Below are positions 32,720-48,269 of a DNA stretch of 64,000 bases, piece after piece. The DNA is from a bacterium. GTDB lineage: Archaea > Thermoplasmatota > E2 > JACPAO01 > JAHFTW01. A program made the position numbers and the translations under genes. Location: positions 373,170-437,169 of the forward strand of contig JAZJZE010000005.1 in assembly GCA_040390065.1 (NCBI GenBank), given 5' to 3'. The number at the start of each line of letters is the position of its first letter. Position 1 is the first letter of the stretch. The notes under the pieces were generated by a model. That model saw only the letters and a program-made list of their open reading frames with translations, did no database searches and was not told the origin of the DNA.

Positions 32720-32725
32720 TTTATC
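32720..32725 (+). promoter_or_regulatory. Possible TATA box for a leaderless 32751-36407 operon
   Basis: TTTATC 26-31 nt upstream of ATG 32751. Confidence 0.4.
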
Positions 32726-32750
32726 CATCTTTGACCAACTCGAACACTGC

Positions 32751-33716
32751 ATGCGGGCGGCCCTTGGTAGCATCCTGGTGGCCGTTGCCGTCTCCGCCCT
32801 TCTGGTTTCCTCTTTCCCCGTTGCAGGCCGCTCCCAAAATGAACTCCTAACCGCCGTCGGCCAGCTTGGCGGAAGCAATCAAGCCTCATACCTGGCGTCG
32901 TTTCCAACCGTCGCGGTCATCAAGACCAATTTGGAGGCCAGGCTCCAGGTTCCCAACATGCCCCTTGCCGACCAGCAGCAGTTGGATGCCCTCCTGGTGC
33001 TAGCATCCAATCATGCTCAGGCATGGACTAACTTGCAGGGCATTGGACAGGGTGCCGGGCATGACCAACTCGTTGGCCTGCAGGGTGTGCTGGCTGCGGC
33101 CAAGGCCTTGAAATCCGAGTTGCAGACCAGCACTGCCGAGCCGGACACGGTGGACCTGTTGCTCCTGGCGACGCTGGACCTGCTCCGCTCCACGGGGGAC
33201 ATGGCCCGCAGCGCGGCCCAATCAACGGTCTCCGTCCCTACTGCGGATCGTCTAGCGTTTTTCCAGGTGGCAATTGAAGGTTACCAAGAGGCGGGGCAAG
33301 GTTCTAACGCCGCGGCAATGCAACGCGAATTTGATGGAATGTCGCGGACCTATACTGCCGACATGGAGGCTGCTGACAACGCCATCCGCGCAGCTGAAAC
33401 CGCTCGCGATGAACCCATTGCTTGGTTTGTGCCTTTAATCAGCCAATACGGTGGCATGAGGGCTGCCGTGTCCGACTTGCAAGCATCAGGGGCGAAACTC
33501 CAGGCGCACGGGGAAACCCAGCGATCCGCGCAGGCCCAGCAAGATTTGACCGGCTTGCAAGCCCACCTCGCACAGGCCCAACGGCAGCTGTTGCAGTCGT
33601 TGGCCGTCTACCTCGCAATTTCCCTCGTTGTTTGTGCTTGGGGCACGCGGGCAACCTACAGGTGGCAAAGCGACGTTCGAACTGCAAGCCTGGGAAGCGG
33701 CATTCCGGGGACGTGA
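32751..33716 (+). CDS. Secreted helical protein with C-terminal TM anchor (ESCRT/tubulin locus)
   Basis: Signal peptide, Ala/Gln-rich helices, TM, tail WQSDVRTASLG. Confidence 0.7.
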   Translation: MRAALGSILVAVAVSALLVSSFPVAGRSQNELLTAVGQLGGSNQASYLASFPTVAVIKTNLEARLQVPNMPLADQQQLDALLVLASNHAQAWTNLQGIGQGAGHDQLVGLQGVLAAAKALKSELQTSTAEPDTVDLLLLATLDLLRSTGDMARSAAQSTVSVPTADRLAFFQVAIEGYQEAGQGSNAAAMQREFDGMSRTYTADMEAADNAIRAAETARDEPIAWFVPLISQYGGMRAAVSDLQASGAKLQAHGETQRSAQAQQDLTGLQAHLAQAQRQLLQSLAVYLAISLVVCAWGTRATYRWQSDVRTASLGSGIPGT

Positions 33717-33719
33717 CCT

Positions 33720-35864
33720 TTGCGCGTTGCCACCGTCCTTCTAGTCCTTCTTTTCGCCGCCGCGCTTCCGCCCTCGAGCCAGGCCCAACCGCCGCCGGCG
33801 CCTGACATTGTGCTCACGACGTCCTCTGGAACGTCATCCCTAGCGCTGGACACACGCTATTCAGCCACGGACTCGGCGACTGCCTATGTTACGGTGAATG
33901 TTCGCAACCAAGGAACCGCGTCGGGAACCGCCACGCCGGCGGCGGCTGCGAGTCTTTCCCTCCCGTCCGGGCTCACGGCCAACTGTAGCAGTTGTTCTAC
34001 AGCTACTGTAAGTGCCGGGTCCTCGACTTCGTGGACTTACCAGTTCACCGCTAGCGCTTCCGATTCTGTGACGCCCGCCAGCGGCGCGGTGAGCATCCCT
34101 ATTTCGGTTGCGGCGGGCACAATCACGTACACTGCGAACTTGGCCGTGACCCGCCAAGACGCCGGCCGGCTTTCTGCCCAGGTTACGCCCGCGGTCTACA
34201 CTCTGCCTTGTCCAGGAAGCACGACTGGCTCGTCCACCTACATCACAGTCCAACTGACCAATGGCGGGGCCACGGCCGTGTCGCTGTTCTCCAATCCCAC
34301 TTTGACCCAGACGACGGCGTCCGGGGTGACAATTTCGCTTTCCTCGCCAGGCAGTTCGTCAATTGGCGCGAATGGCGGCGCAACCTCTCTCCAATATCGA
34401 GTCGACATCAGTTCTGACTTTGCCTCGCGCAATTCCGGCGTTCAGCTTTCGGGTACAGCTGGGCTCCAAATCTCGTATTCCACGACGCGAACCCGACCCG
34501 ACGTCTCGGCCAGTCTTCCCTTTACGATCACCATCCCAATCCAAGTGTCGTTCCTGGACAACGCAGGATTTGTTCAGACCGGTTCGGCGCTGAGCCACGA
34601 CTTTGGGAATGTCGAAATGCAACGCGCTGCATCCCAGTCGGCGCAATTCCGCGAGTCCTGTGGATACCGCGCGATCTCCTTGTCCGCCGATGATCTGGCG
34701 CACAACTCGTTTGCGGTGGCGCCGGCTGCAACTACAATCTTGGGTGGCGGAAGCGCCACCATGGATTTCGGGGTCCTTTTCACCCCGGGGGGCGGGGCCA
34801 GCGTTTGCAAGGCCGAGAACTGGTCCTATCGCGTCGTCGGCTCCACCGCAGGTTCGCAGCAGTACACGCAGCTCTTCGAATTCAGAGCCCAGCCATCCTT
34901 CCAGGATCTGACGGCATACAAGGCCGAATTGGAGACGGCGGCTTCTGGCATCGAAGGATACGATTCCTCCCTGCGCAATCACCTTCTCGCTCTTCGTAAC
35001 GACGCGGACAGTCACACGCAGGGCGGCAGCGGATGCAGTGACGTGCAAGGTGAAACCGCTTTGCTGGTCGGAGTATTGCAACCCCTCGCCTATGCAACGC
35101 GAACCCTGAACGATGCCCAGGGTAAGGTTGCCGCATCCGACTTTGCAGGGGCCAGCACGGCCTTGCTGGGGGGGGCTGCGGCGACGCGAGCCATTAGGAA
35201 CCAATGTTCCAAGATTGTCCAACTGGCTGATGCCGCGTCAGATTGCAAGGCGGCTACCGACGCTCTGACACTGCACTGGACTGCCCTTGCAAATCAGGCG
35301 CGTGACAACTTCAAGGCACAGTTGGGGCCAGGAGCAAATCAACAAACCTTGCTCGATGCCCATGCTGGGCTCGGCCTCATCTATAGGGCATTAAGCCAGC
35401 CAGAACAGGCCAGGGAGGAAGACCAGCTGGCGGAGTCCTCGAGTCAGCGCATTCAAGAATTGCGCAGCCAAGCAACAGAAGAGTTGGACCAGGCGACAGG
35501 GACGCCGACGAATCCCTGGCTTTTTGCTCACATCGGAGACACCTCAGTTGCTTGGAATCCCCTGGGCTATGGCGCGTTGCGTGAATCGCGTGCGTCCACG
35601 GAGGCGCATTACGTTGCGGCAATGGACGCGTACAAGGCGGCCGGTGATACTCGGTCCGCCCAAGAAACGGAGCAAACCCTTGCAGCAATGCAGGCGACGT
35701 ACGGCCGCGCTCAACTGGCTAGCCAGATTGTCCTTGGCATGTGGATCTTGTTGTTCCTGCTTATCGGCGTCCATGTATGCATCCAGACCATTGGCTTCGC
35801 CAATGACCAAAAGCGAATTGCCCTCGGGTTCACGTTGTTCAACTCACCAAAGGGAGGAAGGTAA
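33720..35864 (+). CDS. Large surface protein: signal peptide, Ser/Thr-rich Ig/CARDB-like domains, helical stalk, C-terminal TM
   Basis: VTVNVRNQGT, VQLTNGG, DFGNV beta-sandwich motifs; C-terminus similar to the 32751 protein. Confidence 0.7.
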   Translation: MRVATVLLVLLFAAALPPSSQAQPPPAPDIVLTTSSGTSSLALDTRYSATDSATAYVTVNVRNQGTASGTATPAAAASLSLPSGLTANCSSCSTATVSAGSSTSWTYQFTASASDSVTPASGAVSIPISVAAGTITYTANLAVTRQDAGRLSAQVTPAVYTLPCPGSTTGSSTYITVQLTNGGATAVSLFSNPTLTQTTASGVTISLSSPGSSSIGANGGATSLQYRVDISSDFASRNSGVQLSGTAGLQISYSTTRTRPDVSASLPFTITIPIQVSFLDNAGFVQTGSALSHDFGNVEMQRAASQSAQFRESCGYRAISLSADDLAHNSFAVAPAATTILGGGSATMDFGVLFTPGGGASVCKAENWSYRVVGSTAGSQQYTQLFEFRAQPSFQDLTAYKAELETAASGIEGYDSSLRNHLLALRNDADSHTQGGSGCSDVQGETALLVGVLQPLAYATRTLNDAQGKVAASDFAGASTALLGGAAATRAIRNQCSKIVQLADAASDCKAATDALTLHWTALANQARDNFKAQLGPGANQQTLLDAHAGLGLIYRALSQPEQAREEDQLAESSSQRIQELRSQATEELDQATGTPTNPWLFAHIGDTSVAWNPLGYGALRESRASTEAHYVAAMDAYKAAGDTRSAQETEQTLAAMQATYGRAQLASQIVLGMWILLFLLIGVHVCIQTIGFANDQKRIALGFTLFNSPKGGR

Positions 35865-36407
35865 ATGCCCCTTCGCAGAAAAGAGAGCAAAGTTGAGCAA
35901 CGAGTTGCTGGCGTCATGAAAGAGATTGACGCGGAATACAGCTACTGGAGCCAGGAGTTGGAGAAGGCACGCGAAGATTTGGAACACGGTCGCCGCGCCA
36001 ACGATGGACACCGGGCGGCCCGAGCCGAACAACGGATGGCCAGAATCGAGGACCGCCGGCGCCAGATCAACAACATCATGGCGATTCTCCAGAACTTGAA
36101 GGACAATATCCGTTTCACACAGGGAACCATTGAGAAGTACCGTGAAATTGGCACCATCGTCGGCAAAGAGGGCACCGGCGCGGAAATGCGGGAGCACCTA
36201 GCCGGTGTCACCGAGCACTTGCAGGTCCTCACTGAAAGCCAGTCAAAGTTGGAAAGCCAGATGGATATTGCCTTGGCAATTTCACGGTCTCCTTTGGGAT
36301 CTGCATCCTCGACTGTCCCTGCCAGCTCGCCCTCCGCCCAACCGGATTTGGATCGTGAGAACGAGGAACTTCAGAAACGGCTTCGCAAGTCACGGCGACT
36401 TTCGTAG
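35865..36407 (+). CDS. ESCRT-III/Snf7-like coiled-coil protein
   Basis: 180 aa helical hairpin, Ser/Pro linker, C-terminal ENEELQKRLRKSRR (MIM1-like). Confidence 0.6.
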   Translation: MPLRRKESKVEQRVAGVMKEIDAEYSYWSQELEKAREDLEHGRRANDGHRAARAEQRMARIEDRRRQINNIMAILQNLKDNIRFTQGTIEKYREIGTIVGKEGTGAEMREHLAGVTEHLQVLTESQSKLESQMDIALAISRSPLGSASSTVPASSPSAQPDLDRENEELQKRLRKSRRLS

Positions 36408-36440
36408 CCCTCTAGCTCCCACCATGCCTGGGGACAGAAA

Positions 36441-36803
36441 TCAACTGACGCGAATCTCACGCCAGGAAACGTGTCCGGCTTCGACTTGCGCCTTCACACG
36501 CTGTTGCGACGGGCTGAGTCGGCTTGAGGCGCTCTTGATTTCCACGAACACCACGCCATCCTCGTTGAATTGTACGCCATCAATGGGGCTTCCAATGAAG
36601 CGGAACTGCTTGGGATCCCACGGCCACGATTGCATAAACGGCGCGAAGTTTTCCGTAATCTGACCGTAACGCGTTGCCTGACTGCGCCCATCGAATTTCA
36701 CTTTGCGCAGGCGACGCAGGAGGTACCGCACCCACATCGATAGCAGAAACGCGAGTGTTACCAGCCCGGCGATGGCCCAGCCGAGGGCCGCAATCAGTTC
36801 CAT
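36441..36803 (-). CDS. Membrane-anchored Holliday-junction-resolvase-like endonuclease (COG4741/Endonuc_Holl type)
   Basis: N-terminal TM; GQITENFAPF, RFIGSPID, VFVEIKS, LSPSQ (PD-(D/E)xK). Confidence 0.85.
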   Translation of the reverse strand: MELIAALGWAIAGLVTLAFLLSMWVRYLLRRLRKVKFDGRSQATRYGQITENFAPFMQSWPWDPKQFRFIGSPIDGVQFNEDGVVFVEIKSASSRLSPSQQRVKAQVEAGHVSWREIRVS

Positions 36804-36891
36804 GTGGTCTGAATGCCGGCGGAGGTTTTCAGCCCGCGGGTCGCAACTTGGTGGTGCTTCGGAGGCGGGCTGGCGGGTTCCCACGACTCCT

Positions 36892-38703
36892 TCACGAGGT
36901 CATCCGCGCTCGCCACGCCGGATCTTGAACCACCGTGCTCACCAGCGCCGCCTGGACTTGGAGAAAAAGGACTTGAGCTACAAGGTCTGCGCCAGTCCTT
37001 TGCCTTTCCTGAAATGCCTGCGAAAGCGCCTGCCATAGAGTCGAGGGCAGCAGGACGTCATGCCCGGCTGCCAGTTTCGTGATTGCCTCGTCCAGGCGTT
37101 GGATTGTCGCGCCAACTCGTTGGCGCTCCTGGATGAGTTGGTCTGAGGACGCCCGGAGGAGAATCTGGGCAGCATCAGAGGAAATCTCCAGGCGTGGGGC
37201 CGAAGCAAGGTTGCGCCGTGAGGACGTCAGCTTGTTAATGATCGCCTTTTCGGACAGAGTCGCCTGCAAAGAGGCAATCAGGTTATGGCCTTCCCGAACA
37301 AGGGCGCGGTGAACTGCGACCGGGGCGTACGGACTTGACAGAAGCAAGCCACCCCATTCGGGTAAGCCCTGTAGACCAGTGAGAAAGGGCGCGGCTGCTT
37401 GATTGACAAGGGCGCCCATTTCAGGGTCGAAGCTTGCACATTGTCGGACCAACCGCTCGCTATCCTGACGGAGGGCCACCAAGGCGTCAACGTCAGGTCC
37501 AGTTGGCTGGAAACGGAATCCTACCGAAAGCTGAATCGTGCCGTTGCCGCCCGACGCCGCATCTGCGACGGTGTCTTCGAATCCTTCCCGTTCCACTGCC
37601 GTGCCTACAAGGCAACCGTCCACGGTCGTCTCGACGTCAAATCGGACCCGGCCCTCCAGGTCGGATTTCTGTTGGGCCACAATTTGTTCCCCGCGCTGGA
37701 GGAAAACGGGGATTCCTTGCAATGCCGCGCCCGTGCGTTCGCCCACGACACGTACGGCGATCGACACTCGGTCAGCGGTCAGCGCGATTCGTTGGACGCC
37801 GTCGGCCTGCAGGCGCACCTCCGTTGGCCTGTATCCGGGCGCCGATACGACGGCACGACCGGCCAGGGGCGCCGTGAAGTGTAGGACGCCGTCTTTCCCT
37901 TTCGTCGCATGGCTGAACGGAACTTCCCCGGCAGCATGCTCGACAGATGCACCAGAGATAGCGCGCCCGTCTCCGCTGTCTACGACCTGAATGCTAAATT
38001 CGTGCGTGGAGGCCCGCCGGGCAACTGGGGCGGCAGGGATGGGGTAGGTCGGCAAGGAGCCTCGTGCCGCCGTCCTTGTCGGCTCCGCCGCAACAGTTCG
38101 CGCCACTGGCCTGCTATGGACGGAGGGCGGGCGGGCGGCAGGATTTCGGTCGGGCGCGCGGGAAGTTTTCCCGGAACGGCTGCCAATCACGCTGATGAGA
38201 CCCGAAATTCCAACCAAGATGACCGCGGGGCCGAAGCCCAGCGAAAGGGTCCACAGCCAGAATCCGCCGGGCAGTACCATGCCCGCCGCTACCTCATAGC
38301 CCCCGCCGGGAGGGGAAGGTGGCTGTGCAGTTGCGACTCCATCCTGGAAAACCCGGAATCGATAGGTATTCCCGTTCGCGACATGGACCCCGTGATCGTT
38401 CAAGGTGGCGCGTGAGACATCCAGTTGACCATTTGATGGCGCCAGCCCTGACACAGCGCCTAGCGGGCTTGCCGTCTTGTCGGCGACTGAATCGAACTCT
38501 AGGGTGTAGGTCTTGGAGTCGTCGAGCGCGTACCCCTTGGTTTCATTCGTGTCGCCAGGTTTGAAGTGAAGCTCGCCGAAGAGATCGAGACTTGCTGTGG
38601 CCTCGCCCCCAATGCGGCCCGAGCTCCAGTTCCACACGAGCACTCCGGAGGCCAAGAGGAGGCCGATCGCGAGCCCAATCGCTAACGGGAGCCCCACGCG
38701 CAC
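36892..38703 (-). CDS. Two-TM protein with carboxypeptidase-regulatory/Cna-like Ig domains and helical C-terminus
   Basis: TMs at aa about 5-25 and 140-170; VVDSGDGRAISGASV, VSAPGY, TGAALQGIPV, SDLEGRVRF. Confidence 0.65.
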   Translation of the reverse strand: MRVGLPLAIGLAIGLLLASGVLVWNWSSGRIGGEATASLDLFGELHFKPGDTNETKGYALDDSKTYTLEFDSVADKTASPLGAVSGLAPSNGQLDVSRATLNDHGVHVANGNTYRFRVFQDGVATAQPPSPPGGGYEVAAGMVLPGGFWLWTLSLGFGPAVILVGISGLISVIGSRSGKTSRAPDRNPAARPPSVHSRPVARTVAAEPTRTAARGSLPTYPIPAAPVARRASTHEFSIQVVDSGDGRAISGASVEHAAGEVPFSHATKGKDGVLHFTAPLAGRAVVSAPGYRPTEVRLQADGVQRIALTADRVSIAVRVVGERTGAALQGIPVFLQRGEQIVAQQKSDLEGRVRFDVETTVDGCLVGTAVEREGFEDTVADAASGGNGTIQLSVGFRFQPTGPDVDALVALRQDSERLVRQCASFDPEMGALVNQAAAPFLTGLQGLPEWGGLLLSSPYAPVAVHRALVREGHNLIASLQATLSEKAIINKLTSSRRNLASAPRLEISSDAAQILLRASSDQLIQERQRVGATIQRLDEAITKLAAGHDVLLPSTLWQALSQAFQERQRTGADLVAQVLFLQVQAALVSTVVQDPAWRARMTS

Positions 38704-39971
38704 TACTTCGCCTCCTTCATCAGGGCCTGGGCGCGCTTCACCCGATCGAGATAGCCATCCAGATTGGCCTTGATTTTCTTCAGTCTGCGGCCGAGCTCCT
38801 CGTTTCCGGGCTGCAGGGTCAGCATCTGGCTTACCTGGTCGAAGTGCTTCAACGGCTTGCGAAGGAGGGGGCGCAGATCAAATCCACCCAGCACAAGCAG
38901 GACGTCAAAGCCTGAGCTGTCCTGATCGCTCACCGTTAGCGAACTCATTCCGACAACGGTACTCAGATTCTTGCGCTGCCATTTCGTGAACGTGTCCAGG
39001 ACACCTTTCGCCGTAAAGTCATGTTTGCCGAGCAGCTCCTCGGGTACACGCACGATGAGGTACGCCACGAGGACGCTCTTTGGATCGACTTCGACGAAGG
39101 ATTCCTTCAGCGCGAAGTCGAGCGCCAATTCGAGTTCTACAATGTCGGGATCGTTGCCCAGGGAAAGCCCGCACGTGAAATGCGTGAGCCCCATCTTGCC
39201 GGGGAGCCGGATGAGATCCTCAACGTCAATGACGTTGACAGCGCGTCGGCCGCCGGCCGTTAGCAGGTCCAAGGCGTCGGCAATGCGCCGATTGATGTCG
39301 TAGAAGTCAGCCTCGGCCGCCTCCCCCGCATCTCCTAGACTTGCCAATCGCGAATTGTCGCAGAGCATTACCCAGTCGGCGTTAGGCATCCCCGTATCCT
39401 CCTGCATGAGTAGGCGAGACAGGCCGGCAACGGCATTGAAATGGCGGTGCTTGTCCTCATTCTCGAAGGGCCATGCGGCCACTGCAAAATGGTGGACCTT
39501 GTCTAGTCCCAGGCCTCCTTTGCTCTTCATGGAGCGGATGATGTAAGGGACGCTGCCATTTCCGGTGCCGCCGCCAAGGGTGGTCAGACTAATCAAAGCG
39601 TCTCCCTGCCCGATGCCTACGGCCAGCATCTTGCGCCTGATGTTCGTTTCAAAGTGCATGACCGCATAGTCCTCACCTTGGGTAAACAGGTTGCCGGCAC
39701 CGCGGTGCTCGCCGAACTCCACAACGTGTCCCTTACTGATTTCATCGATGCGATCCGACCCCGCACTATCATCGAGGCGGATGCGGAGTTCGTCCAGGAT
39801 ATTTGCGAGGTCGCCTGGATTGGAATTCAGAAGTAGGATTCGATTGCCAACAGATGGGTGCTGCGTCTTCGAGAAGTACAGGGAAGCAATGCGCGTCCCC
39901 CCTTCTCCCGAGCCAACGACGGACCAGCGGCTATGCCGGCTCCGGCCTGCCACCCCAGATTCATCAGCCAT
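38703..39971 (-). CDS. Tubulin/FtsZ-family (CetZ-like) GTPase 2
   Basis: VVGSGEGGTRIA, GAGN, LGGGTGNG, WPF, LCDN, INRRIA, IDVED. Confidence 0.88.
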   Translation of the reverse strand: MADESGVAGRSRHSRWSVVGSGEGGTRIASLYFSKTQHPSVGNRILLLNSNPGDLANILDELRIRLDDSAGSDRIDEISKGHVVEFGEHRGAGNLFTQGEDYAVMHFETNIRRKMLAVGIGQGDALISLTTLGGGTGNGSVPYIIRSMKSKGGLGLDKVHHFAVAAWPFENEDKHRHFNAVAGLSRLLMQEDTGMPNADWVMLCDNSRLASLGDAGEAAEADFYDINRRIADALDLLTAGGRRAVNVIDVEDLIRLPGKMGLTHFTCGLSLGNDPDIVELELALDFALKESFVEVDPKSVLVAYLIVRVPEELLGKHDFTAKGVLDTFTKWQRKNLSTVVGMSSLTVSDQDSSGFDVLLVLGGFDLRPLLRKPLKHFDQVSQMLTLQPGNEELGRRLKKIKANLDGYLDRVKRAQALMKEAK

Positions 39972-41415
39972 CGCGGACCTTCCCCTTGACCTTCGTCGGT
40001 GCCGTCTTCTTGACCTGCTTTGCCTCGCCGGTGGGCGCGTCAGCTGCGGCGGGCACGAGGCTGCCATTCTTGAGCATCCATGTGGGGTTCTCCCGCGCAA
40101 ATTGCTCGAACACCTCGCTGGCATCCCGCAACTTGAGGTCCTTGGCCGTTACCAGACCCTTGCTCTTGATTGTGGCCTCAATCGTGGGTTTGAGCTTCTT
40201 GTAAAGGGGACGCAGCTTTGCGTCCTTGAGAGTGTCGCGGAATCCCGACGAAAGTTGTTCGAAACGTGGTCGCCAGTCGTTCAGGTAAGGCGCGACCGGG
40301 CCGCCGGCGATGGGCAGGGCCGCGGGACCACCGAAGGTTTCCACGTAGAGGCCCCAGGCCTCGGTTCCGCCTTCTTGCTTGGAAACCTGCGCTTCCAGTT
40401 CTGCAAGGGCAGCGCCCGCCAAGTCCACGAGTTGGGCACGCAGCGTGGGGATGCGACCGACCTGCAGGGGAGAATGGAGGGAGTCAATGGCCATGCTCAG
40501 TTCTTGGATTCGGTCCTGAGTCGCCCTTGCCAAGAGCGGGCGGCCGGGGGATTCATTGAGTTCTAGGAGCGCCCGCAAGAGTTCGTTGCGGCCGCGATCG
40601 AAGCCTTCCTTGAGTCTCCCCTCGAGGGCCCTCCCGCCATCGCGCAGATAGGTTAGAGCCGCCAGGACATTTCCTGATTCCATGGCTTTGAGAGCTTGCT
40701 CCCTTAGTGCCACTGCCGATGCCGATTCCTTGTATTCGGCTTCCACGGAGCGAATTGCTCCTTGCAAGCCGTCATTTGCAGACCGGGCGATTTCGTGCAA
40801 GGCACCGTGCAGTTTCTCGAGGGCGTCCTTGGGGTCGCTGGCAACTTGGCTCGCCGGCGGGAGCGGTTTGCCCCACCCCATTTTTTCAAGGTCACGAATC
40901 AGGGGTTGCGCGGCGGACCGCAGGGCATCCGTTCCCTGCCGGATGATGACGTCAGCATTCGCTCGTGCGGCGGCCAGCTTCGTGCGTTGACGGTTGAGAA
41001 GCGCCAGATCCATTTCGTCCTGGCGCCGGGCATTAGCTTCGAGGGGCTGATCGGCATGTTCCGATTGGCGCAGATACGGCTCCAGGTCCGCGCGGATGGG
41101 GGCCAAGCTGGGGAGGGTTTCGCGGCTTGCCCCAAGCAAACGGGCTGCGGAACCCAGGCGACTTTCAAGAGCGTTGAATTGCTGGATGAATTCCGCTAGT
41201 TCCCGGGCCTTGAGTTGAACCGGAAGACTGTATTTGTTCATCGAGACCATGCTTCGCTTCATCAGCAGAATCCCAACGCCGATCAAGATGGGGCTTCCCA
41301 GCAAAGCGAACCCGGCGATCTTGTTCCCGGTGTCCATGAAAAAGGCGCCCAGGGCGAGGAGCGCCACGGCCGTGCCTGCCGAGGATACAGCAATGATTTT
41401 CGTTTCGTTGTTCAT
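39964..41415 (-). CDS. Two-TM anchored coiled-coil protein with possible C-terminal winged helix
   Basis: Two N-terminal TMs, long helical region, TIEATIKSKGLVTAKDL...WMLKNGSL. Confidence 0.65.
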   Translation of the reverse strand: MNNETKIIAVSSAGTAVALLALGAFFMDTGNKIAGFALLGSPILIGVGILLMKRSMVSMNKYSLPVQLKARELAEFIQQFNALESRLGSAARLLGASRETLPSLAPIRADLEPYLRQSEHADQPLEANARRQDEMDLALLNRQRTKLAAARANADVIIRQGTDALRSAAQPLIRDLEKMGWGKPLPPASQVASDPKDALEKLHGALHEIARSANDGLQGAIRSVEAEYKESASAVALREQALKAMESGNVLAALTYLRDGGRALEGRLKEGFDRGRNELLRALLELNESPGRPLLARATQDRIQELSMAIDSLHSPLQVGRIPTLRAQLVDLAGAALAELEAQVSKQEGGTEAWGLYVETFGGPAALPIAGGPVAPYLNDWRPRFEQLSSGFRDTLKDAKLRPLYKKLKPTIEATIKSKGLVTAKDLKLRDASEVFEQFARENPTWMLKNGSLVPAAADAPTGEAKQVKKTAPTKVKGKVRDG

Positions 41416-41419
41416 GGGG

Positions 41420-42733
41420 TCATCTCAGCAGAACCTGGAATAGGCGAAGCAATCCAAACGGCAAGGCAATGGCTGCCCCGACAACAAGGGCGACAAGGCA
41501 GCCGATTGCCGCGAATTTGGTGGCGTCGAGGGCACGGAAGCCCGCGTCGTAGCCAATCCATCGGGCAACTTTGGTTTTCCATCGGCGCCCCCAGACCCAC
41601 GTGCCCGCCGTCGCTGCCAGGGCACCGCTTGCAGCGGTAAGGCCAATGCCCATGGACAGTTGCCAACGGGCCCCCTGCAGAGCGGTCTCTGCGGAATCAA
41701 AGCGAGTTTGTGAGGTCTCGCGAAACGCTTGGTCGACCTCGGAATCAATCGTTGCAACCGCCGTCTTGACCGTCGCCAGTTGGTCCCAGGTTGGCAGCGG
41801 GCTTTGGTCCATCTGGAAACCTTCGATTTTTGAGCGAATGGCTGCCACGGTTCCGGTCGGTGCTCGCACGGTCTTGTTGTATGTTCGCCATGCCTTCTCG
41901 GCCATGGTTGCGTTACTGCTGTTCCTGATGTCGTGGATGGCAGTTGCGGCCGTGGAATTTAGGCTTTCAACAAGGGAGCGAAGCTCTCCGTATGCAGCGC
42001 GATCACCGGAAGGAATACAGAAGGGGGCCTTTCCAAGCGCCCGTTCAACCGGGTAGGCGAGTGCGAGAGTTTCCGTTCCGGACGGGCAATCCGCGAACGG
42101 GCAGGAAGCAGATGTGATCTTGCCCGCTGCCACTGATGTTCCGTTCCATGTGGCACGCCACTGGAACTCGACGGATCCGGAGGTTGCGCTGCCACCCGAC
42201 AGCGGAATCGCAACCCGGCTCGTCCCATTGTTTGCCGCTAGGGGAACCACCTGTTGGAGCGTGGAGCCCTTCCATGTCCCCACAGCGTCGACGTGTAGCT
42301 CTGTATCGAGCCTTGCAACCAAGTTGCCGGCGTGTATTGTAAACTCAGCCTGCCCGCCCCGCGTGAACGGGCACGGAGGCGCATCGACGCTGACCAGGTA
42401 CGGAATGTTCGGCCGGAGCGGCAAGGTCGATACCGTATTGTTGGCCGCCACGGCGACTTGCTCGATGGCCAGCGCGTTCGAGCCGTTCCTAATGATCAAG
42501 GTAGAAACGCCCGGAGCGAGACTAAGCGTCATTGATGTCCCGGTAACTGGGAGAGTTTGATTTGCAGTGCCGCGGTGTTCCACAACGAGTTCGAGAGGCT
42601 GGCCACCCGGGAAGCCATCCAGCTGGACTGCAAGGTTCGCCGTCACCGCCGGAAGACCCGAGCTGCCGCCAACAACGGCTGCGCTAGCCAACAAGATGCA
42701 GAGGGGTAGCAGGGCGAGCCGAACACGGTTCAC
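41420..42733 (-). CDS. Secreted Ig-like plus helical protein with two C-terminal TMs
   Basis: Signal peptide from GTG 42733, several N-x-S/T sequons, two hydrophobic C-terminal segments. Confidence 0.65.
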   Translation of the reverse strand: MNRVRLALLPLCILLASAAVVGGSSGLPAVTANLAVQLDGFPGGQPLELVVEHRGTANQTLPVTGTSMTLSLAPGVSTLIIRNGSNALAIEQVAVAANNTVSTLPLRPNIPYLVSVDAPPCPFTRGGQAEFTIHAGNLVARLDTELHVDAVGTWKGSTLQQVVPLAANNGTSRVAIPLSGGSATSGSVEFQWRATWNGTSVAAGKITSASCPFADCPSGTETLALAYPVERALGKAPFCIPSGDRAAYGELRSLVESLNSTAATAIHDIRNSSNATMAEKAWRTYNKTVRAPTGTVAAIRSKIEGFQMDQSPLPTWDQLATVKTAVATIDSEVDQAFRETSQTRFDSAETALQGARWQLSMGIGLTAASGALAATAGTWVWGRRWKTKVARWIGYDAGFRALDATKFAAIGCLVALVVGAAIALPFGLLRLFQVLLR

Positions 42734-43020
42734 TTTCCAGCCTCCAATTCCCGCTTGAAGCGTCGGCCAATCAGAGGGCCCGCAAGCCCGAAGCCAGCGG
42801 CGATTCCGAGGCAGGCGCCCACAACCCATGCTATCCAGGCAGGTTGAAGAGAGTCGGCCGCCCCTTGGGCGTCGGCCTGGCCTTGAGATTCGCTAGCAAT
42901 TTCGTCCGGTCCGTTTCCGCTTAGACCCGGCCGATGCAGGGGCGACAGCACGAGCAGTAGGAGCAGAGCCAAGGCCGCCGTTCCCAGCAAGAATCCCAAA
43001 AATGGCCAGCCCTTCGTCAC
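42730..43020 (-). CDS. Small two-TM protein
   Basis: Two TMs; GTGA overlaps with both neighbours. Confidence 0.6.
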   Translation of the reverse strand: MTKGWPFLGFLLGTAALALLLLLVLSPLHRPGLSGNGPDEIASESQGQADAQGAADSLQPAWIAWVVGACLGIAAGFGLAGPLIGRRFKRELEAGK

Positions 43021-44291
43021 AGACCAAGGACCCCCCCCGCATTGTAGCGCATTGCGAGGTCACTGATCTGCTGCAACCGCGTGAGCTGCTTGCGCTCAAA
43101 GGTAAGAAGCGTGTTGACGCTCACAATCGGTCGACGGCCAATGGTGATGCCAAAATGGGTTTCTTGTAGCCGGGACATCTTCCCAAGCTTCGCCTCAACC
43201 TGCCCTGTCTGCGGGAAAAAGCGCGGGTTCTTCGCGAGATTTAGAGGGAGTCGCACGAGGCCGAGGTTCTTCTGGGCCTCCTCCGGACGTACGTCCTGAA
43301 TGCTTTGCTTTCGCAATGCCACCTCGAGGAGGGCGGTGCAGTCCACATTCCGGCGGCCGAGACCTGGCAGCAGGTAGCCTCGGTACTTTCGCGTGGTATC
43401 CGCGGCCCAGCCGATGCTAGCGTAGCCCGGACGGCGGCCCCGGTCTCCTGTCCCGAAGCTGATTGCGCTTGCTATGTCGCGTACATCCGTCACCTTGAGC
43501 GACATGTTGCCAGCCTTGGCCAAGTCGAGGTCGTCCAGTAGGTGGGCAGCAAGTAAGTCGGCCATAGCCCGCGCGACGTAGGCATTGAAGTCTGGGAAAA
43601 GCCGCTCCACTTCGCCTGCATAAGCGAGGCGCTCGTTATCCACTAGGATGAAACCGTCGGCGACCTTTTCCAGTTCATCGAGGGCGAAGATCGTGTTCCA
43701 TGCCTGACGGTGGGTCCCGCGGGCACCGTCCTCGGAACCTTCGTGCGTCGCCGGCAGAATGCCGACCACGATGATAGTCGTCCGGCCGGCTGAGGCCTCT
43801 CGCAGGGCCTTGGCAATCAATGCGGCGGTGCCACACCCGGTGCCGCCCCCAAAACCAAGGAACAGAACGGCGTCTGGAATCGTACCGACGTCCTGCTCGG
43901 TCACCTCCCATTCATCGCCGTCAGTGGCGACGTTTCTGGTCTTGCTGGTCAGGTTCGCGGCGCCGGTCTCGCGCGCAGCGAAATCCTTGAAGAAGGCGAT
44001 GAGGGCTTCCATGTTCTTGCCAATGCGCTCCTGCGCCAGTCGCGGGTCTTTTCCAAATCCGCCAACGACCATCGATTCGATGCCAGGAGTGGGGCCTGGA
44101 ACGATTCCCTTGGTTTCAGAAAGGCCCAGCCAGTTGGAACGCGGAATATGCTTGAGAGATTGAAGGTCCTTGATCGTGGAGTTGATTGCCAAGGGCTTGT
44201 GCGCCTTGGAGAAGTGCTTGAAATGCTGGGGGTCCATCATTTGATCCACAATGGCTCCGCCAGCTTGTCCAATTCCAATCAGTAGTGTCAT
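43017..44291 (-). CDS. Tubulin/FtsZ-family (CetZ-like) GTPase 1
   Basis: IGIGQAGGAIVD, AINST, GGFGKDP, FGGGTGCG, GILPA, ILVDNE, FN, TDVRD; ATGA overlap with the ATPase stop. Confidence 0.9.
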   Translation of the reverse strand: MTLLIGIGQAGGAIVDQMMDPQHFKHFSKAHKPLAINSTIKDLQSLKHIPRSNWLGLSETKGIVPGPTPGIESMVVGGFGKDPRLAQERIGKNMEALIAFFKDFAARETGAANLTSKTRNVATDGDEWEVTEQDVGTIPDAVLFLGFGGGTGCGTAALIAKALREASAGRTTIIVVGILPATHEGSEDGARGTHRQAWNTIFALDELEKVADGFILVDNERLAYAGEVERLFPDFNAYVARAMADLLAAHLLDDLDLAKAGNMSLKVTDVRDIASAISFGTGDRGRRPGYASIGWAADTTRKYRGYLLPGLGRRNVDCTALLEVALRKQSIQDVRPEEAQKNLGLVRLPLNLAKNPRFFPQTGQVEAKLGKMSRLQETHFGITIGRRPIVSVNTLLTFERKQLTRLQQISDLAMRYNAGGVLGL

Positions 44292-45493
44292 GTCTTGCCT
44301 CCCGATGACTGCGAAGATGCATAGTTCTCGTAGTATTGCAACTGCTCGGGTTTCAACGCGGCAGGAACACTTCGCATCGCTTTCTCGAAGTGTGCCCACG
44401 TCAAGGGAAGCGTGCGCAACTTTTCGCCTGACTTGAAGTCGGCGCTTGCGTCCCCCAGGCTCGGATTCGCGTCCTGCAGCATGGCATGCACGGCGTCGTC
44501 GCAGAGGTTCTTGAGGTCCCGACCGGAATAGCGCTCCGTCCTTGAGACAAGCTGGGCTAGGTCGAAGGCAAGTTCGTGTCCCCGGGTTTCTAGCCGGACA
44601 ATCTGCTGGCGCGCCGCCGCGTCGGGTAGAGGCACGTACACCTTTTTCTTGAACCTGCTACGGATTGCGTCCGAAATCTCATCAGGCCGATTCGTGGTGG
44701 CAATCGTGATGACTTTGGGCGGACCTCCCTTCGCCGAGAAGCCGTCCAGCATTTGCAGGAACGTATCGTGCAGCTGGGTAGCAACCTCATGGCTGCCTTC
44801 CGTATGGCGGCCTAGCCGCGTGAACTCGTCCAAGAAAACGATGCTCGGTGCCCGCTGCTCCGCCTTCTTGTAGAGGGTGGTGAGAAGCTTTCCCGAATCA
44901 CCGACCCATTTTGATTCAAGATTGGCCAGGTTGACGTTGAAGAACGTCATGCCGTTCGCTGAAGCCGCCGCGCTCGCCAAGAGAGTCTTGCCGGTCCCTG
45001 GCGGACCGTACATCAGAATCTTGTCTGGTACTCCGATTTTCAGGCCTTCTGGCTTTTCACGGAAGAACATCTGGATGGCGCTCACAATGGTGCGCTTGGT
45101 TTCTTCGAGACCAGCGATGTCTTCCCAGCGGGTCTTGGACGTTTCAATCATCGCTTCAATGCGGCGATCCAAGCTTCCCTGGTCTTCGTCTTCCTCGGAT
45201 GCAGGACTGCCCGCCTTGTCGTCACGAGTCCTGGTCCTGGAATTTCCGGGTGGAGGTCGTGGAGGGCTACGGAGATTAGCGGCTCGGTCTCGCAATTGTT
45301 GAACACGAATTCTTGCTTGTCCTTGCGTATAGGCCGTGCGAGCGAGCTTTGCGACCTTGTCGGCTTGGGCAGCCGCCTCGTCATACGCATTAGCGGCACC
45401 GGCAGGATCGTGCCCTTCGAGTGACGACGCGCGCGCAATGGCCGCCCGCATCTTCTCTTCGGCGATGGAGACCGCCAATTCCTCCATGCCCAT
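44288..45493 (-). CDS. Vps4/CdvC-type AAA+ ATPase with N-terminal MIT domain
   Basis: MIT-like AANAYDEAA...LRDRAANL; WEDIAGLE, GPPGTGKT, SKWVGDS, IVFLDE, TTNRP...AIRSRF, VPLPD, YSGRDL. Confidence 0.9.
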   Translation of the reverse strand: MGMEELAVSIAEEKMRAAIARASSLEGHDPAGAANAYDEAAAQADKVAKLARTAYTQGQARIRVQQLRDRAANLRSPPRPPPGNSRTRTRDDKAGSPASEEDEDQGSLDRRIEAMIETSKTRWEDIAGLEETKRTIVSAIQMFFREKPEGLKIGVPDKILMYGPPGTGKTLLASAAASANGMTFFNVNLANLESKWVGDSGKLLTTLYKKAEQRAPSIVFLDEFTRLGRHTEGSHEVATQLHDTFLQMLDGFSAKGGPPKVITIATTNRPDEISDAIRSRFKKKVYVPLPDAAARQQIVRLETRGHELAFDLAQLVSRTERYSGRDLKNLCDDAVHAMLQDANPSLGDASADFKSGEKLRTLPLTWAHFEKAMRSVPAALKPEQLQYYENYASSQSSGGKT

Positions 45494-45500
45494 CGCGGAC

Positions 45501-46082
45501 TCAGCTCCGCAGAGGGTCGGCAACCTTCAGGCGCGAGTTGAGAGCATCGTCAATCTTCTCCGGCGGGAGGGATTCCAGCTCCGTCATGATGCTCATGAAG
45601 TTTGAGTTGTTCATTTCGGAAGAAGCCGAGAGCGCGTCCTGCGATTGCTCGATTTGCTCCGCGAGTCCGGCAAGGCGAATGCCAATTTTCTGCTCGCCCT
45701 TCGCCAAGTCACGGATGCTGTGACTCAGATCGCTCATCGTTTTCGCACCAACAATTTTCTTGAGGGCCTTCAGGGCACCTTCCGTCTCAAGCTCCTGGGC
45801 CTCGTAGCTGCTCTTGATGGCCGTGGCCGCGGAATAGACGGCAATCTTGTAGGAAACTGCACGCTGCGTTGAACGGGCGGAGCTGTAGAACCCCTGGACC
45901 TGGGCGGCAATGAGTTGTTTGGAGGAGTTCGGCGCGCCGATGGCCTTCTTCATGAGGTCGCGAGCCTTCTTGTCGGCCTGCTCGATTTGACGGGACTTGA
46001 TGTTGATGTCCGCATTCAAGTCGAAGATCAGGTCATCCAGTTGCTCGATTTTCTTAGAGGTCTTTTTTCCGAAGAGGCCCAT
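45501..46082 (-). CDS. ESCRT-III (Snf7/Vps24-like) protein
   Basis: MGLFGKK amphipathic N-terminus, helical body, C-terminal DDALNSRLK (MIM1-like); adjacent to the Vps4-type ATPase. Confidence 0.7.
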   Translation of the reverse strand: MGLFGKKTSKKIEQLDDLIFDLNADINIKSRQIEQADKKARDLMKKAIGAPNSSKQLIAAQVQGFYSSARSTQRAVSYKIAVYSAATAIKSSYEAQELETEGALKALKKIVGAKTMSDLSHSIRDLAKGEQKIGIRLAGLAEQIEQSQDALSASSEMNNSNFMSIMTELESLPPEKIDDALNSRLKVADPLRS

Positions 46083-46086
46083 GTAG

Positions 46087-46671
46087 TCACTCCCGTCCCT
46101 GTGGCTTTGTCTTGGTAGATTTGTTGGTGGCTGGCTCTTCCGCCTTCTTCGTCGGCGCGGGCGCCGAGTTGATCATGCGCTCTTCCTCCGACAGTTCCCC
46201 GGAACCAGCTCCAGTCCCCTCAGAAAGTCGGCCGCGACGCTGCTCCGTCTGTGCCCGGGCCTTCTCCACTTCCTTCTGGCGGCCCTCGAGAGCCTTGCCA
46301 AGCTCGTGATCAGACATTTTTCCAGTTACCTTGTCGAGTCGCTTCGCACCGCGCACCGCCTCGGTCCCGCGGCGCTGCTCAATGAGAGCAGTCACGGTTT
46401 CTTGCTGGGCCAACAAAGCATCGAAATCCTGCTGGAGGCGTTCAATTTGGGGGCGCAGTTGGCGTGCCTTGCTCGCTCGCAAGCGAACGTCGTTGTCCGT
46501 TTCCTCGGGGCGTCGACCGGAAAGCAATGCATCGTACTGCGCTCGGAGCTGCTTGAGTTGGGCGTTCGTACCGTCCGCCCTTACGCCGAGCCGCGTTTCC
46601 TCGTCCGCTAGCTTGTCAAGCGACAATTTGTCCAACTTTTTCGAAGGATCTGAGCGGCCAAATGGAATCAT
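46087..46671 (-). CDS. ESCRT-III-like coiled-coil protein, first gene of the operon
   Basis: MIPFG N-terminus, long charged helical hairpin, 194 aa, context. Confidence 0.55.
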   Translation of the reverse strand: MIPFGRSDPSKKLDKLSLDKLADEETRLGVRADGTNAQLKQLRAQYDALLSGRRPEETDNDVRLRASKARQLRPQIERLQQDFDALLAQQETVTALIEQRRGTEAVRGAKRLDKVTGKMSDHELGKALEGRQKEVEKARAQTEQRRGRLSEGTGAGSGELSEEERMINSAPAPTKKAEEPATNKSTKTKPQGRE

Positions 46672-46880
46672 GACATTGACTCCCGGGTTGCGGGCCCGAA
46701 TGCGACCTGCAACTCCTGCGGCAGCTGGACCAGGCTAGCGCCGAAACAGCGTCCCCGGACCAAGGCAGAAAGCAAGCAAATCAACAGACAGGACCATCCG
46801 GTATAACGGTTGGGGTTCCCCGTCAGGAGAGGGCGCGGGGCGAGCTTCATTCGGCTGCGCTCTGGGAGCGCTCCGGCGGC

Positions 46881-47648
46881 ATGCTTATGCCATACGGCCA
46901 GCGTGTACAGGGCGTGGCGGAAGCGCAGCGCCGGTGCCCATTTTGCAAGAGCACCATGGTCCCGAATCGCATGGCTTCTGGGGCCCTGCGTTGCTCCGTC
47001 TGCGACAATACGGGCGTGGTGCGCGAGAATGCGCCATCGACGGTTGTCGTCGTTGCAGCCAACCCCGCGCCCGCGCCACCTCCGCCCGTTGTTCTAGCCG
47101 AACAACCGGCGGCATCGGCCTGGGCCCCCCAGGTCCCGGTGCAAGCCACCACGTTTGCTGAATCGGCTCCGTCTTGGGAACAAGTCCCCGAAGCACCGGC
47201 GCAGTGGCAACCCGCCCCGCCCGCTTGGACACCACCTGCGTCTTCCAGTCAGGGGTCCGGGTTTGCTCGGCTTTCAGGCGGGCAGAAGACGGCCGTCGTT
47301 TGCAGTGGCCTCATGGCCATCGGGGCGCTGGGCCCATGGATTGAGATCTTGGGTTTCAGCGTGTCCGGAACAAAAGGCGACGGTTGGTTCATTGCGGGGC
47401 TGGCAGCCGCGGCCGGCTTGACGCTTCTTTTCGCAAACAAGGCCTCGACGAGGAAGGGTGTGGCGGCAACCTGCTTTGCCGTGGGGCTCGTCATTGTCCT
47501 GGTAGAGTTTGGTCAGCTTCAGAGTAAGATTGGAAACACGAGTCTGCAACTTTCGGATTTCCTCAGTTGGGGGTTGCCCCTGGCGCTAATCTCCGGCATT
47601 ATCGGGTTCATTGGGTCCCTCCAATCGCCTCGGTACAAAGGTCAGTAG
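46881..47648 (+). CDS. Zn-ribbon / Pro-rich linker / four-TM membrane protein
   Basis: CPFC...CSVCDNTG, PAPPPP, LGPW...GDGW membrane domain. Confidence 0.7.
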   Translation: MLMPYGQRVQGVAEAQRRCPFCKSTMVPNRMASGALRCSVCDNTGVVRENAPSTVVVVAANPAPAPPPPVVLAEQPAASAWAPQVPVQATTFAESAPSWEQVPEAPAQWQPAPPAWTPPASSSQGSGFARLSGGQKTAVVCSGLMAIGALGPWIEILGFSVSGTKGDGWFIAGLAAAAGLTLLFANKASTRKGVAATCFAVGLVIVLVEFGQLQSKIGNTSLQLSDFLSWGLPLALISGIIGFIGSLQSPRYKGQ

Positions 47649-47704
47649 CGCTGGAACGCCAACGTTGAAGAAAAGCTGAAGTGGACGATGCCTGTGCCGG
47701 AGGC

Positions 47705-48217
47705 ATGGCCAGAAATGTATTCGCGGCATCCTTGCTTGTTGTGGTCTTTTCGGCGATGCTCCTGGCCGGATGTGCCAACAACTCTGGCTACCAGCCTCAA
47801 TCCACGTACCAACCCCAGCAGGGGCAGCCGCAGGCACAGCCCCAACCGGCACAGCCGCAGCCACCTCCCCCACCTCCGGCCCAGCCCACGCTGCATTACA
47901 TCGTGCAGAATCACGTTGCGGCCGTAGCCGCGGGTACCGTAGGTTCCTATTCCTTCGAAATCACGGGCGCACCCGTCGACACATACTACCAGTGGACGCG
48001 CTCGGACGACAGCGCCGTTGACACGGGATTCATCCGGGCATCGGACCTTGCTGAATACAAGCAAGGCCAGACCGTTAATGGTTGGGCAATCAATCGACAG
48101 GCTGCGAGCGTCACAGATCACGCCACCCTGCCCGTCGAATCTTACGCCTATATCATCAAGTGCGACAATTCATTTGCCGACTGCGACGGCACGTTCTCAA
48201 TCTACTACTACGCTTGA
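47705..48217 (+). CDS. Lipoprotein with Gln/Pro-rich linker
   Basis: Lipobox LLAGC; QPQ repeats; small beta domain with a Cys pair. Confidence 0.7.
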   Translation: MARNVFAASLLVVVFSAMLLAGCANNSGYQPQSTYQPQQGQPQAQPQPAQPQPPPPPPAQPTLHYIVQNHVAAVAAGTVGSYSFEITGAPVDTYYQWTRSDDSAVDTGFIRASDLAEYKQGQTVNGWAINRQAASVTDHATLPVESYAYIIKCDNSFADCDGTFSIYYYA

Positions 48218-48269
48218 CGGGCGACGGTCAACTGGAAAGAGCCTTGTACGCTCGCCTTCGTCTAGAATC

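Follow-up and report, generated by a model that had tools for sequence, protein, structure and literature searches.

Operon organization

The stretch of archaeal DNA analysed here, referred to below as the window, is 64,000 nucleotides (nt) long, with positions counted from its first letter, and carries on its minus strand nine closely packed genes which the list of open reading frames (ORFs) resolves as a single operon running from 46671 to 36892. Two of these genes encode divergent proteins of the tubulin/FtsZ superfamily, named TubP1 and TubP2 in this study, and they are accompanied by genes for membrane proteins, an AAA+ ATPase and two helical or coiled-coil proteins (Table 1). Successive genes are joined by ATGA or GTGA overlaps, an 8-nt overlap or a 1-nt overlap, or are separated by gaps of 4-8 nt. 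The stop codon of CC1 lies 4 nt ahead of the CC2 start, the stop of the ATPase gene and the start of TubP1 overlap as ATGA, the GTG start of TM96 and the stop of TubP1 overlap as GTGA, the GTG start of SP469 overlaps the stop of TM96, and the stop of TMcc overlaps the start of TubP2 by 8 nt. Transmembrane topologies of the operon and surface proteins were obtained with a hydropathy script. An earlier note on this DNA had described two divergent tubulin/FtsZ paralogs in one operon, and both ORFs are indeed found on the minus strand at the positions it gave; the membrane proteins between them had been noticed as well, whereas the Vps4-like ATPase and the coiled-coil genes had been missed.

Table 1. 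Genes of the operon, sequence motifs of the two tubulin-like proteins and adjoining genes in the window
Feature	Position	Strand	Description	Evidence
CC1	46087..46671	-	soluble coiled-coil protein of 194 aa, encoded by the first operon gene	ORF
CC2	45501..46082	-	193-aa helical protein, candidate ESCRT-III-like subunit	ORF, AlphaFold2 model
AAA	44288..45493	-	single-cassette AAA+ ATPase, 401 aa, Vps4/Cdc48-like, helical MIT-like N-terminus	Pfam
TubP1	43017..44291	-	tubulin/FtsZ-superfamily GTPase, 424 aa	PF00091, motifs GQAGG, GGGTGCG, TDVRD
TubP1 first loop	44256..44270	-	GQAGG, aa 8-12	motif
TubP1 signature	43830..43850	-	GGGTGCG, aa 148-154	motif
TubP1 T7-like motif	43476..43490	-	TDVRD, aa 268-272	motif
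TM96	42730..43020	-	small membrane protein, 96 aa, two transmembrane segments	hydropathy
SP469	41420..42733	-	membrane protein with N-terminal signal/anchor, ~370-aa outside domain and C-terminal transmembrane segment	hydropathy
TMcc	39964..41415	-	two N-terminal transmembrane helices and ~430-aa helical cytoplasmic domain	hydropathy
TubP2	38703..39971	-	tubulin/FtsZ-superfamily GTPase, 422 aa	motifs GEGG, GGGTGNG, IDVED
TubP2 first loop	39897..39908	-	GEGG, aa 22-25	motif
TubP2 signature	39555..39575	-	GGGTGNG, aa 133-139	motif
TubP2 T7-like motif	39216..39230	-	IDVED, aa 248-252	motif
TM603	36892..38703	-	603-aa membrane protein: transmembrane segment, short outside loop, transmembrane segment, ~420-aa cytoplasmic domain	hydropathy
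Endonuclease	36441..36884	-	membrane-anchored, Holliday-junction-resolvase-like	Pfam Endonuc_Holl 67.9 bits
Surface proteins	32751..35864	+	two convergent genes for proteins of 321 and 714 aa with signal peptide and C-terminal transmembrane anchor	hydropathy

Sequence motifs and fold of TubP1 and TubP2

TubP1 and TubP2 are distant paralogues of the tubulin/FtsZ superfamily. Against the Pfam family PF00091, for which the cut-off is 33 bits, TubP1 scores 55.1 bits and is above it, while TubP2 is slightly below with 30.3 bits and reaches 33.7 bits together with neighbouring stretches in a genome scan. Scores against the FtsZ model TIGR00065 are 43 and 32 bits for TubP1 and TubP2, respectively, with a cut-off of 295. 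The two sequences share 23% identity over 268 columns (BLASTP, E 0.14), and comparison of the two family profiles with hhalign gave a probability of 98.5% (E 3e-15). Two canonical FtsZ proteins, scoring 161 and 151 bits against PF00091, are also encoded in this genome.

The earlier note had drawn attention to non-canonical signatures (GGGTGCG and GGGTGNG), to the first loops GQAGG and GEGG and to T7-like DxxD motifs; all of these were located where it placed them (Table 1). The nucleotide loops of the GTPase domain, T1 (GxxG), T3, T4 (GGGTGxG), T5 and T6, are conserved across each family. At the unusual signature position TubP1 relatives have C or S over 19 aligned sequences, and N138 of TubP2 is invariant in 18 of 18 aligned relatives; the unusual signature residues are family traits and not errors. 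In the T7-type motif, D269 and D272 of TubP1 are invariant in the 19 aligned sequences, D249 of TubP2 is invariant, and D252 is found in at least 90% of the aligned sequences. An insertion of about 30 residues in TubP1, also proposed earlier, is real: some 30-35 residues precede the signature, and an AlphaFold2 (AF2) model shows a beta-hairpin at residues 115-135. It is, however, lineage-specific, being absent from the orthologues of genome G018 (see below), haloarchaea and Hydrothermarchaeota. A C-terminal block is also conserved in each family and differs between them: RLxxLxxLAxxY for TubP1, LxxIExNLxxY for TubP2.

The AF2 model of TubP1 (predicted local distance difference test, pLDDT, 86; predicted template modelling score, pTM, 0.88) aligns to CetZ and FtsZ over both domains, including the activation domain. 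Its best structural matches are CetZ2 (4b45), CetZ (3zid) and CetZ1 (4b46), with template modelling scores (TM-scores) by target of 0.75-0.79 and 17-19% identity, followed by FtsZ and TubZ. Searches of the PDB with the family profiles gave a similar picture, with E-values for TubP1 of 8.5e-21 to 2.5e-17 to CetZ and 2e-12 to FtsZ, and for TubP2 of 1.9e-12 to CetZ 4b45 and 2.9e-11 to FtsZ; the TubP2 profile aligned to residues 76-339 of M. jannaschii FtsZ. Both profiles matched BtubA/B and AtubA/B at 1e-7 to 1e-10, more weakly than CetZ, and for eukaryote-type tubulins, artubulin and TubZ as well the PDB profile E-values fall behind those for CetZ. CetZ is the nearest solved relative of both families.

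Phylogenetic placement

A tree of 97 rows and 364 columns was built with IQ-TREE from rows picked from the loci, together with FtsZ and CetZ genes that these genomes carry; its scope is FtsZ, CetZ and the families described here, without eukaryote-type tubulins, BtubAB, artubulin and TubZ. CetZ and CetZ-like proteins contribute 12 rows, the CetZ rows coming from one haloarchaeal genome, five genomes of the anaerobic methanotrophic archaea ANME-2 and four metagenome rows. TubP1 (29 rows, support 100/100) and TubP2 (27 rows, support 100/99) form clades of their own, on stems of 1.5-1.9 substitutions per site. All FtsZ sequences, among them the two canonical copies of this genome, make up a third clade (21 rows, 100/100) which contains neither TubP1 nor TubP2. 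The nesting within ordinary CetZ or FtsZ clades that the earlier note had named as the outcome contrary to its claim was thus not seen. TubP1 and the CetZ rows are joined at 78/41 only, so that a sister-group relationship between TubP1 and CetZ is suggested by these sequences with weak support, and TubP2 is a separate deep branch.

A third paralogue was found in haloarchaea, where a tubulin-like protein of 530-650 aa, here TubP0, is encoded upstream of TubP1 (L068:1055-2902, with equivalents in L042-L080; PF00091 49 bits in Haloquadratum). Its clade (8 rows, 100/100) and that of TubP2 are separate long branches. The window has no counterpart of TubP0, and the coiled-coil and AAA genes occupy that place. 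The TubP1 pattern also picked up, in metagenome loci L136-L144, a tight group of CetZ-like proteins of 365-409 aa with 23-26% identity, and the four members of this group included in the tree clustered with the ANME-2 CetZ rows.

These data bear on the simplest reading of the pair, namely that TubP1 and TubP2 are ordinary cell-shape CetZ paralogues, or spare copies of the division protein FtsZ, whose motifs have drifted. CetZ is after all the closest solved protein in fold and in sequence, with the TubP1 model matching it over the full two-domain fold; some relatives are labelled 'CetZ' or 'FtsZ' by their sources; and arCOG02202, as given in published tables, lumps the TubP2 orthologue with CetZ. 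We nevertheless consider this reading very improbable. The two families form their own fully supported clades on long stems, apart from the rows that these genomes contribute to CetZ and FtsZ, share only 17-19% identity with CetZ structures in the case of the TubP1 model, and carry the signatures GGGTG(C/S)G or GGGTGNG; two canonical FtsZ genes are already present in the genome, and the module is absent from 12 genomes of the same genus. Their genes stand among membrane-protein genes, a context unrelated to that of CetZ in the accessible part of PMC9871819 (published reports are cited here and below for the parts accessible to us).

Distribution and co-inheritance

In a large protein collection TubP1 has 13 word-sharing relatives, itself included, the closest with 44-79% identity, and TubP2 has 227, many of them haloarchaeal and carrying the source label 'FtsZ family protein, noncanonical'. 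Using the TubP2 profile, 80 genome loci were found, including relatives from Halobacterium, Natrinema, Haloarcula and Halorubrum. A TubP1-family gene is present in 50 of these loci and lies upstream of TubP2 on the same strand in 46, at a distance of 1352-4744 nt (median 3382); the latter include haloarchaea, Hydrothermarchaeota and Methanoperedens among others, and the other four paired loci (three Micrarchaeota, one ANME-2) are arranged differently. TubP1 is missing from 30 loci, of which six are cut by contig ends and 24 are of ANME-2/Methanosarcinales type; upstream sequence is longer than 8 kb in nine of these 24, and two have only a truncated TubP2. When five ANME-2 genomes were searched whole, TubP2 was present in all five and a TubP1-family ORF was found on another contig in four (195-215 bits against the family profile); in the fifth, a Pfam match of the same kind lies near a contig end. 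Among the metagenome matches listed, all at 38% identity or less, both genes occur in 16 of 43 loci, and the remainder are mostly short contigs or the nine CetZ-like outliers.

Pairwise distances within the two families are correlated over 68 loci (r = 0.92; the highest value among 500 label shuffles was 0.10), with nearly equal mean divergences of 0.54 and 0.56. The correlation establishes co-inheritance under similar constraint and is not evidence of binding.

Of 400 genomes sampled evenly from the phylum of the window, only G066 (58% identity) and G018 (37%) have TubP1 orthologues; the other 47 matches have E-values of 7.7e-9 or weaker, and the nine of them placed in the tree all fell among the FtsZ rows. 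None of the eight same-genus and ten same-family genomes listed has TubP1. The gene order of G018 matches that of the window, namely a coiled-coil gene, CC2, AAA, TubP1, two genes, TubP2 and a large gene with transmembrane segments. G066, which is 94% complete, keeps TubP1, an SP469-like gene, a TM603-like gene and two surface proteins in a contiguous syntenic locus. This reduced module (L017, G066:C20, 6733-12956) consists of TubP1, the SP469-like gene, a 310-aa ORF and the TM603-like gene, and is devoid of TMcc.

One polymer or two

The earlier note proposed that TubP1 and TubP2 are a possible obligate heteropolymer, in which the two subunits would alternate along a protofilament in the manner of alpha/beta-tubulin, BtubA/B or AtubA/B and neither would work alone. 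Conservation of the pair in one operon over several archaeal phyla agrees with this proposal, as do the near-equal rates with the correlation of the distance matrices and the presence of both genes in ANME-2 genomes even where they are unlinked. The same lack of linkage also argues against an obligate partnership, and further points do so too. G066 has TubP1 and membrane partners but no TubP2; haloarchaea have a third paralogue; 1.3-4.7 kb of membrane-protein genes separate TubP1 from TubP2; and both families retain all GTP (guanosine triphosphate) loops and both T7 aspartates. Loop loss in beta-tubulin is asymmetric, and TubP1 and TubP2 have no such asymmetry. In the form originally stated the proposal is not supported, and we regard an obligate heteropolymer as rather unlikely.

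With complete nucleotide loops and T7 acidic residues in both, each of the two proteins could in principle polymerise alone. A second possibility, which we hold only tentatively, is that they form two separate homopolymers, co-regulated but with different tasks at a single site, like archaeal FtsZ1 and FtsZ2, one serving as a scaffold and the other in constriction or positioning. The complete GTPase and T7 set of each family fits this arrangement, and so do the occurrence of TubP1 alone in G066, the unlinked genes of ANME-2 and the fact that a different membrane-protein gene abuts each tubulin gene. The separate C-terminal helix blocks (RLxxLxxLAxxY and IExNLxxY) suggest different docking partners. 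Tight co-inheritance and equal divergence would, however, fit a physical partnership equally well.

Membrane and surface proteins

In 15 genome loci and 3 metagenome loci the gene immediately upstream of TubP2 encodes a homologue of TMcc (phmmer, 1e-5 to 1e-11), and TMcc is a candidate membrane tether of TubP2. Tethering by the intervening membrane proteins had been suggested in the earlier note; the conserved position of TMcc just upstream of TubP2, where the stop codon of one gene overlaps the start of the other, fits this suggestion, and the tethering itself may be surmised from it. A homologue of SP469 occupies the syntenic place in G066 (E 2e-7), and TM603 has homologues in Methanoperedens (3e-6), immediately downstream of TubP2, and in G066 (3e-17), again in syntenic position. 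Homologues of the surface proteins adjoin tubulin genes in G066, Methanoperedens, Hydrothermarchaeota and haloarchaea, and the haloarchaeal counterpart is at the place of the 'adaptin appendage domain' protein in the accessible part of Makarova 2024. Pfam searches at loose thresholds returned nothing usable for the membrane proteins or for the N-terminus of the ATPase.

The ATPase and the coiled-coil proteins

The ATPase has one AAA+ cassette, of the classic or meiotic clade, with Pfam matches to AAA (PF00004, 118.6 bits) and AAA_lid_3. Its NCBIfam matches, to CDC48, PAN and CdvC, are partial (147 bits for the CdvC model, with a cut-off of 650), and its closest solved structures are Cdc48/VAT D2 and fidgetin-like proteins. 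It is about 40% identical to proteins of Thermococcus and Methanococcales that carry Vps4_C. Residues 1-112 lie nearest to MIT clusters in the Atlas (feature score 0.87, below the bar of the tool and taken as a lead only), and MIT clusters are nearest by structure too, with TM-scores of 0.60-0.63 over ~75-83 residues, which is also below the bar of the tool. In haloarchaea the ATPase gene is about 12 kb from the tubulin genes, in a convergent operon. The closest relatives of TubP1 (44-79% identity) may have the ATPase as well, as matching 'longest contig' lengths of 12650, 16809, 50153 and 43673 among the protein records suggest.

CC1 has no transmembrane segment and matched no Pfam or NCBIfam family; it shares 26% identity over 98 aa (E 9e-4) with its positional equivalent in G018. 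CC2 has five relatives at E<=1e-10 among 1.84 billion representatives, and hhalign and BLASTP detected no relation between CC2 and CC1. In the AF2 model of CC2 (pLDDT 73.7), helices 4-47 and 52-100 make up a long hairpin, after which come four shorter ones. A conserved C-terminal motif runs from acidic to basic, (D/E)xx(L/I)xx(R/K)(L/V/I)K, and resembles the MIM1 consensus. The weak rows of a Foldseek search with CC2 include, besides the top match discussed below, CdvB2, CHMP2A/3, Vipp1 and PspA.

The proposed module

Starting from the established fold, motifs, family membership, synteny, operon coupling and co-inheritance, we consider it probable that TubP1 and TubP2, together with the fixed membrane proteins, are the cytoskeletal core of an accessory archaeal module for envelope or membrane remodelling (Halo.Tub, Halo_adaptin; see below), of which the window holds a compact variant. 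TubP1 and TubP2 would bind GTP, hydrolyse it and assemble into filaments beneath the membrane, being either one copolymer or a pair of filaments that cooperate. TMcc upstream and TM603 downstream of TubP2 would hold the filaments at the membrane and may connect them to Ig-like surface proteins outside the cell, and the ATPase with its helical partner would act there on a membrane-bound polymer, remodelling or recycling it. For the latter two proteins, a pair that is 'ESCRT-III-like plus Vps4-like' (ESCRT, endosomal sorting complexes that are required for transport) is the interpretation we are inclined to favour, and the assignment of CC2 to ESCRT-III is tentative.

Several observations weigh against parts of this proposal. 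In the ATPase and its close relatives P0145-P0147 Pfam detects no Vps4_C (PF09336), and in the ATPase it finds no MIT domain; among the loci fetched, the ATPase gene adjoins the tubulin genes only in G000 (this genome) and G018. For CC2, no match to Snf7 or PspA_IM30 was obtained with Pfam at E<=1 in nine family members, genome-wide scans for Snf7 and PspA gave matches at other loci and none at the operon, and hhalign found no profile similarity to the haloarchaeal ESCRT-III-like gene. The top Foldseek match of CC2 is CHMP1B at E 0.25, with nothing significant, and in VIA-align Z-scores of 8-10 were reached with many unrelated generic helical hairpins. As for the membrane proteins, those of G018 are positional equivalents only, without detectable homology. 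In G066, Pfam and family-profile searches found TubP2 nowhere in the genome, and the ATPase is absent at the locus.

In a more far-reaching form of the idea, the coupled Vps4-like ATPase would build and dismantle two polymers jointly, a membrane-tethered copolymer of TubP1 and TubP2 and one that is ESCRT-III-like, the whole constituting one trans-envelope machine. This we regard as unlikely.

Comparison with published systems

The TubP1/TubP2 family is not new, having been glimpsed in print. Santana-Molina 2023 (PMC9871819) describes a sparse 'Halo.Tub' group of CetZ-like proteins with quasi-tandem copies. The haloarchaeal loci studied here, with TubP0, TubP1 and TubP2, match this group by description. 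In its accessible text the copies are not split into co-inherited families and no link to Vps4 is made, and compared with that description the pair is found here also in Hydrothermarchaeota, Micrarchaeota, Methanoperedens, ANME-2 and the phylum of the window.

Makarova 2024 (PMC11188069 / PMC10936438) reports, in its accessible part, a 'Halo_adaptin' ESCRT system from Haloquadratum walsbyi, in which an ESCRT-III/PspA-like gene and a single CetZ-like gene occur with genes for a Vps4-like ATPase, a membrane protein and 'adaptin' proteins that are Ig-like. In supplementary table 2 of PMC10936438 the Halo_adaptin neighbourhood of H. walsbyi C23 ends with a 1233-nt 'FtsZ3' of arCOG02202, and this is the exact place of the TubP2 orthologue. 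A Haloquadratum metagenome-assembled genome (MAG) has two FtsZ and three tubulin-like genes in all, the three being all in the cluster, beside a 571-aa AAA protein with CDC48_2, a PQQ propeller protein and Ig-like proteins. From the gene inventory of the MAG and the position in the C23 table, the TubP2 family is identified with the published CetZ-like component. The published table stops at TubP2, and TubP1 and TubP0 are just beyond it, unlisted. Proteins encoded where haloarchaea have the adaptin-like gene are homologues of the window's 714-aa surface protein. There are differences as well: the ATPase of Halo_adaptin has a VAT-N-like domain and a separate convergent operon, whereas that of the window has an MIT-like N-terminus and is coupled to TubP1, and none of the winged-helix (wH) proteins, VAT-N or the PQQ propeller described for Halo_adaptin was found in the window.

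Other systems are more distant. Alpha/beta-tubulin, BtubA/B and the Asgard AtubA/AtubB (PMC13394414, as far as its accessible text goes) likewise have paired paralogous tubulin genes in one locus, but the genes of TubP1 and TubP2 are not adjacent. The artubulin of Nitrosoarchaeum is a divergent tubulin whose gene has an upstream Snf7 (ESCRT-III) gene; it differs, in the available portions of PMC10936438 and PMC9871819, in being a single tubulin (arCOG14071), with a bona fide CdvB and without the set of membrane proteins. FtsZl1 and FtsZl2 (Makarova and Koonin 2010, PMC2875224) are divergent FtsZ-like proteins with a predicted role in membrane remodelling with several partners. Both were considered and rejected as counterparts on the accessible description: FtsZl1 has about 1000 aa, a coiled coil, no recognisable T6-H7 and vWA, GTPase and OmpA partners, and FtsZl2 is proteobacterial. 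The accessible part of Brown and Duggin 2023 mentions merely 'non-canonical TSF proteins' (TSF, tubulin superfamily) of patchy distribution. No experimental work on the TubP1 or TubP2 families was found in the full text of PubMed Central and bioRxiv.

What is new is a compact variant in another phylum, outside Halobacteria, with coiled-coil genes and a Vps4-like ATPase translationally coupled to TubP1, and the recognition of the pair as a widely conserved and co-inherited unit.

Genomic setting

The G+C content is ~0.60 across ~28-60 kb of the window and ~0.66 elsewhere. A DNA search with positions 28001-48000 in 12 same-genus genomes gave three kinds of match only: short fragments carrying AAA motifs, some hundreds of bases around 28.1-28.7 kb, and the endonuclease gene (36441-36884). 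Among sequencing runs, no RNA run was listed as containing the stretch; one DNA run contains it and may be its source. Given its absence from genomes of the same genus and the lower G+C, the tubulin module is considered accessory in this genome. The endonuclease gene lies 7 nt past TM603, the last operon gene. Alone in the region 36-47 kb, it is matched at the DNA level by same-genus genomes, namely 8 of the 12, at 69-77%; despite its adjacency it is probably outside the tubulin system.

An accessory module in a lower-G+C stretch that is absent from 12 same-genus genomes, with one copy on a Natrinema plasmid (L046), could be taken for a DNA-segregation system of a plasmid or virus resembling TubZ or PhuZ. 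This is extremely improbable. Five of the nine operon genes were counted as encoding membrane proteins, TM96, SP469, TMcc and TM603 among them, and no DNA-binding adaptor or centromere-like repeat turned up in the operon, though no search was aimed at them. In a viral collection the TubP2 profile gave 35 pattern matches, none of which was confirmed as a relative; no tRNA was found in the window, and no integrase-family match was obtained among the ORFs scanned against Pfam.

Some other features of the window are recorded here. The stretch 28000-60000 looks like a variable surface-structure island, with 28001-48000 almost wholly absent from the 12 same-genus genomes and with glycosyltransferases, an aminotransferase, a UDP-glucose dehydrogenase and a protein kinase at the far end of the low-G+C stretch. 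At its low-G+C edge (28721-30133), an ORF of 279 aa with a RES domain (Pfam 47.8 bits) stands directly before a 189-aa ORF on the same strand, and the two are possibly a toxin-antitoxin pair of RES/Xre type. Two adjoining paralogous ORFs of ~730 aa at 2731-7232 end in HVO_0163-type and ArsR-type helix-turn-helix domains, and their large N-terminal parts have no family match. Divergent from the operon, at 46881-48824, two ORFs each start with a zinc-ribbon-like CxxC...CxxC motif, one of them having three transmembrane segments, and between both lies a Gln/Pro-rich secreted protein; none of these matches a family.

Implications

Archaea are usually said to carry out membrane work either by FtsZ/tubulin or by ESCRT, and cooperation between tubulin and ESCRT is otherwise known from eukaryotic abscission. 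In the window both kinds of gene, tubulin and ESCRT-like, are translationally coupled in one operon. If the reading as a single machine were true, it would be an archaeal precedent for tubulin-ESCRT cooperation, with cytoskeletons mechanically joined.

The tubulin families themselves are inherited as a unit, a pair or in haloarchaea a triplet, over very distant archaeal lineages, of which published surveys, in their accessible parts, give fragments only (quasi-tandem copies in one, and in another a single CetZ-like gene where a gene table ends). Recognition of a conserved pair whose membrane partners are fixed offers a concrete hypothesis, testable in genetically tractable haloarchaea with the cluster such as relatives of Halobacterium, Natrinema, Haloarcula and Halorubrum, and bears on the origin of paired tubulins, a question sharpened by the work on Asgard AtubA/B.

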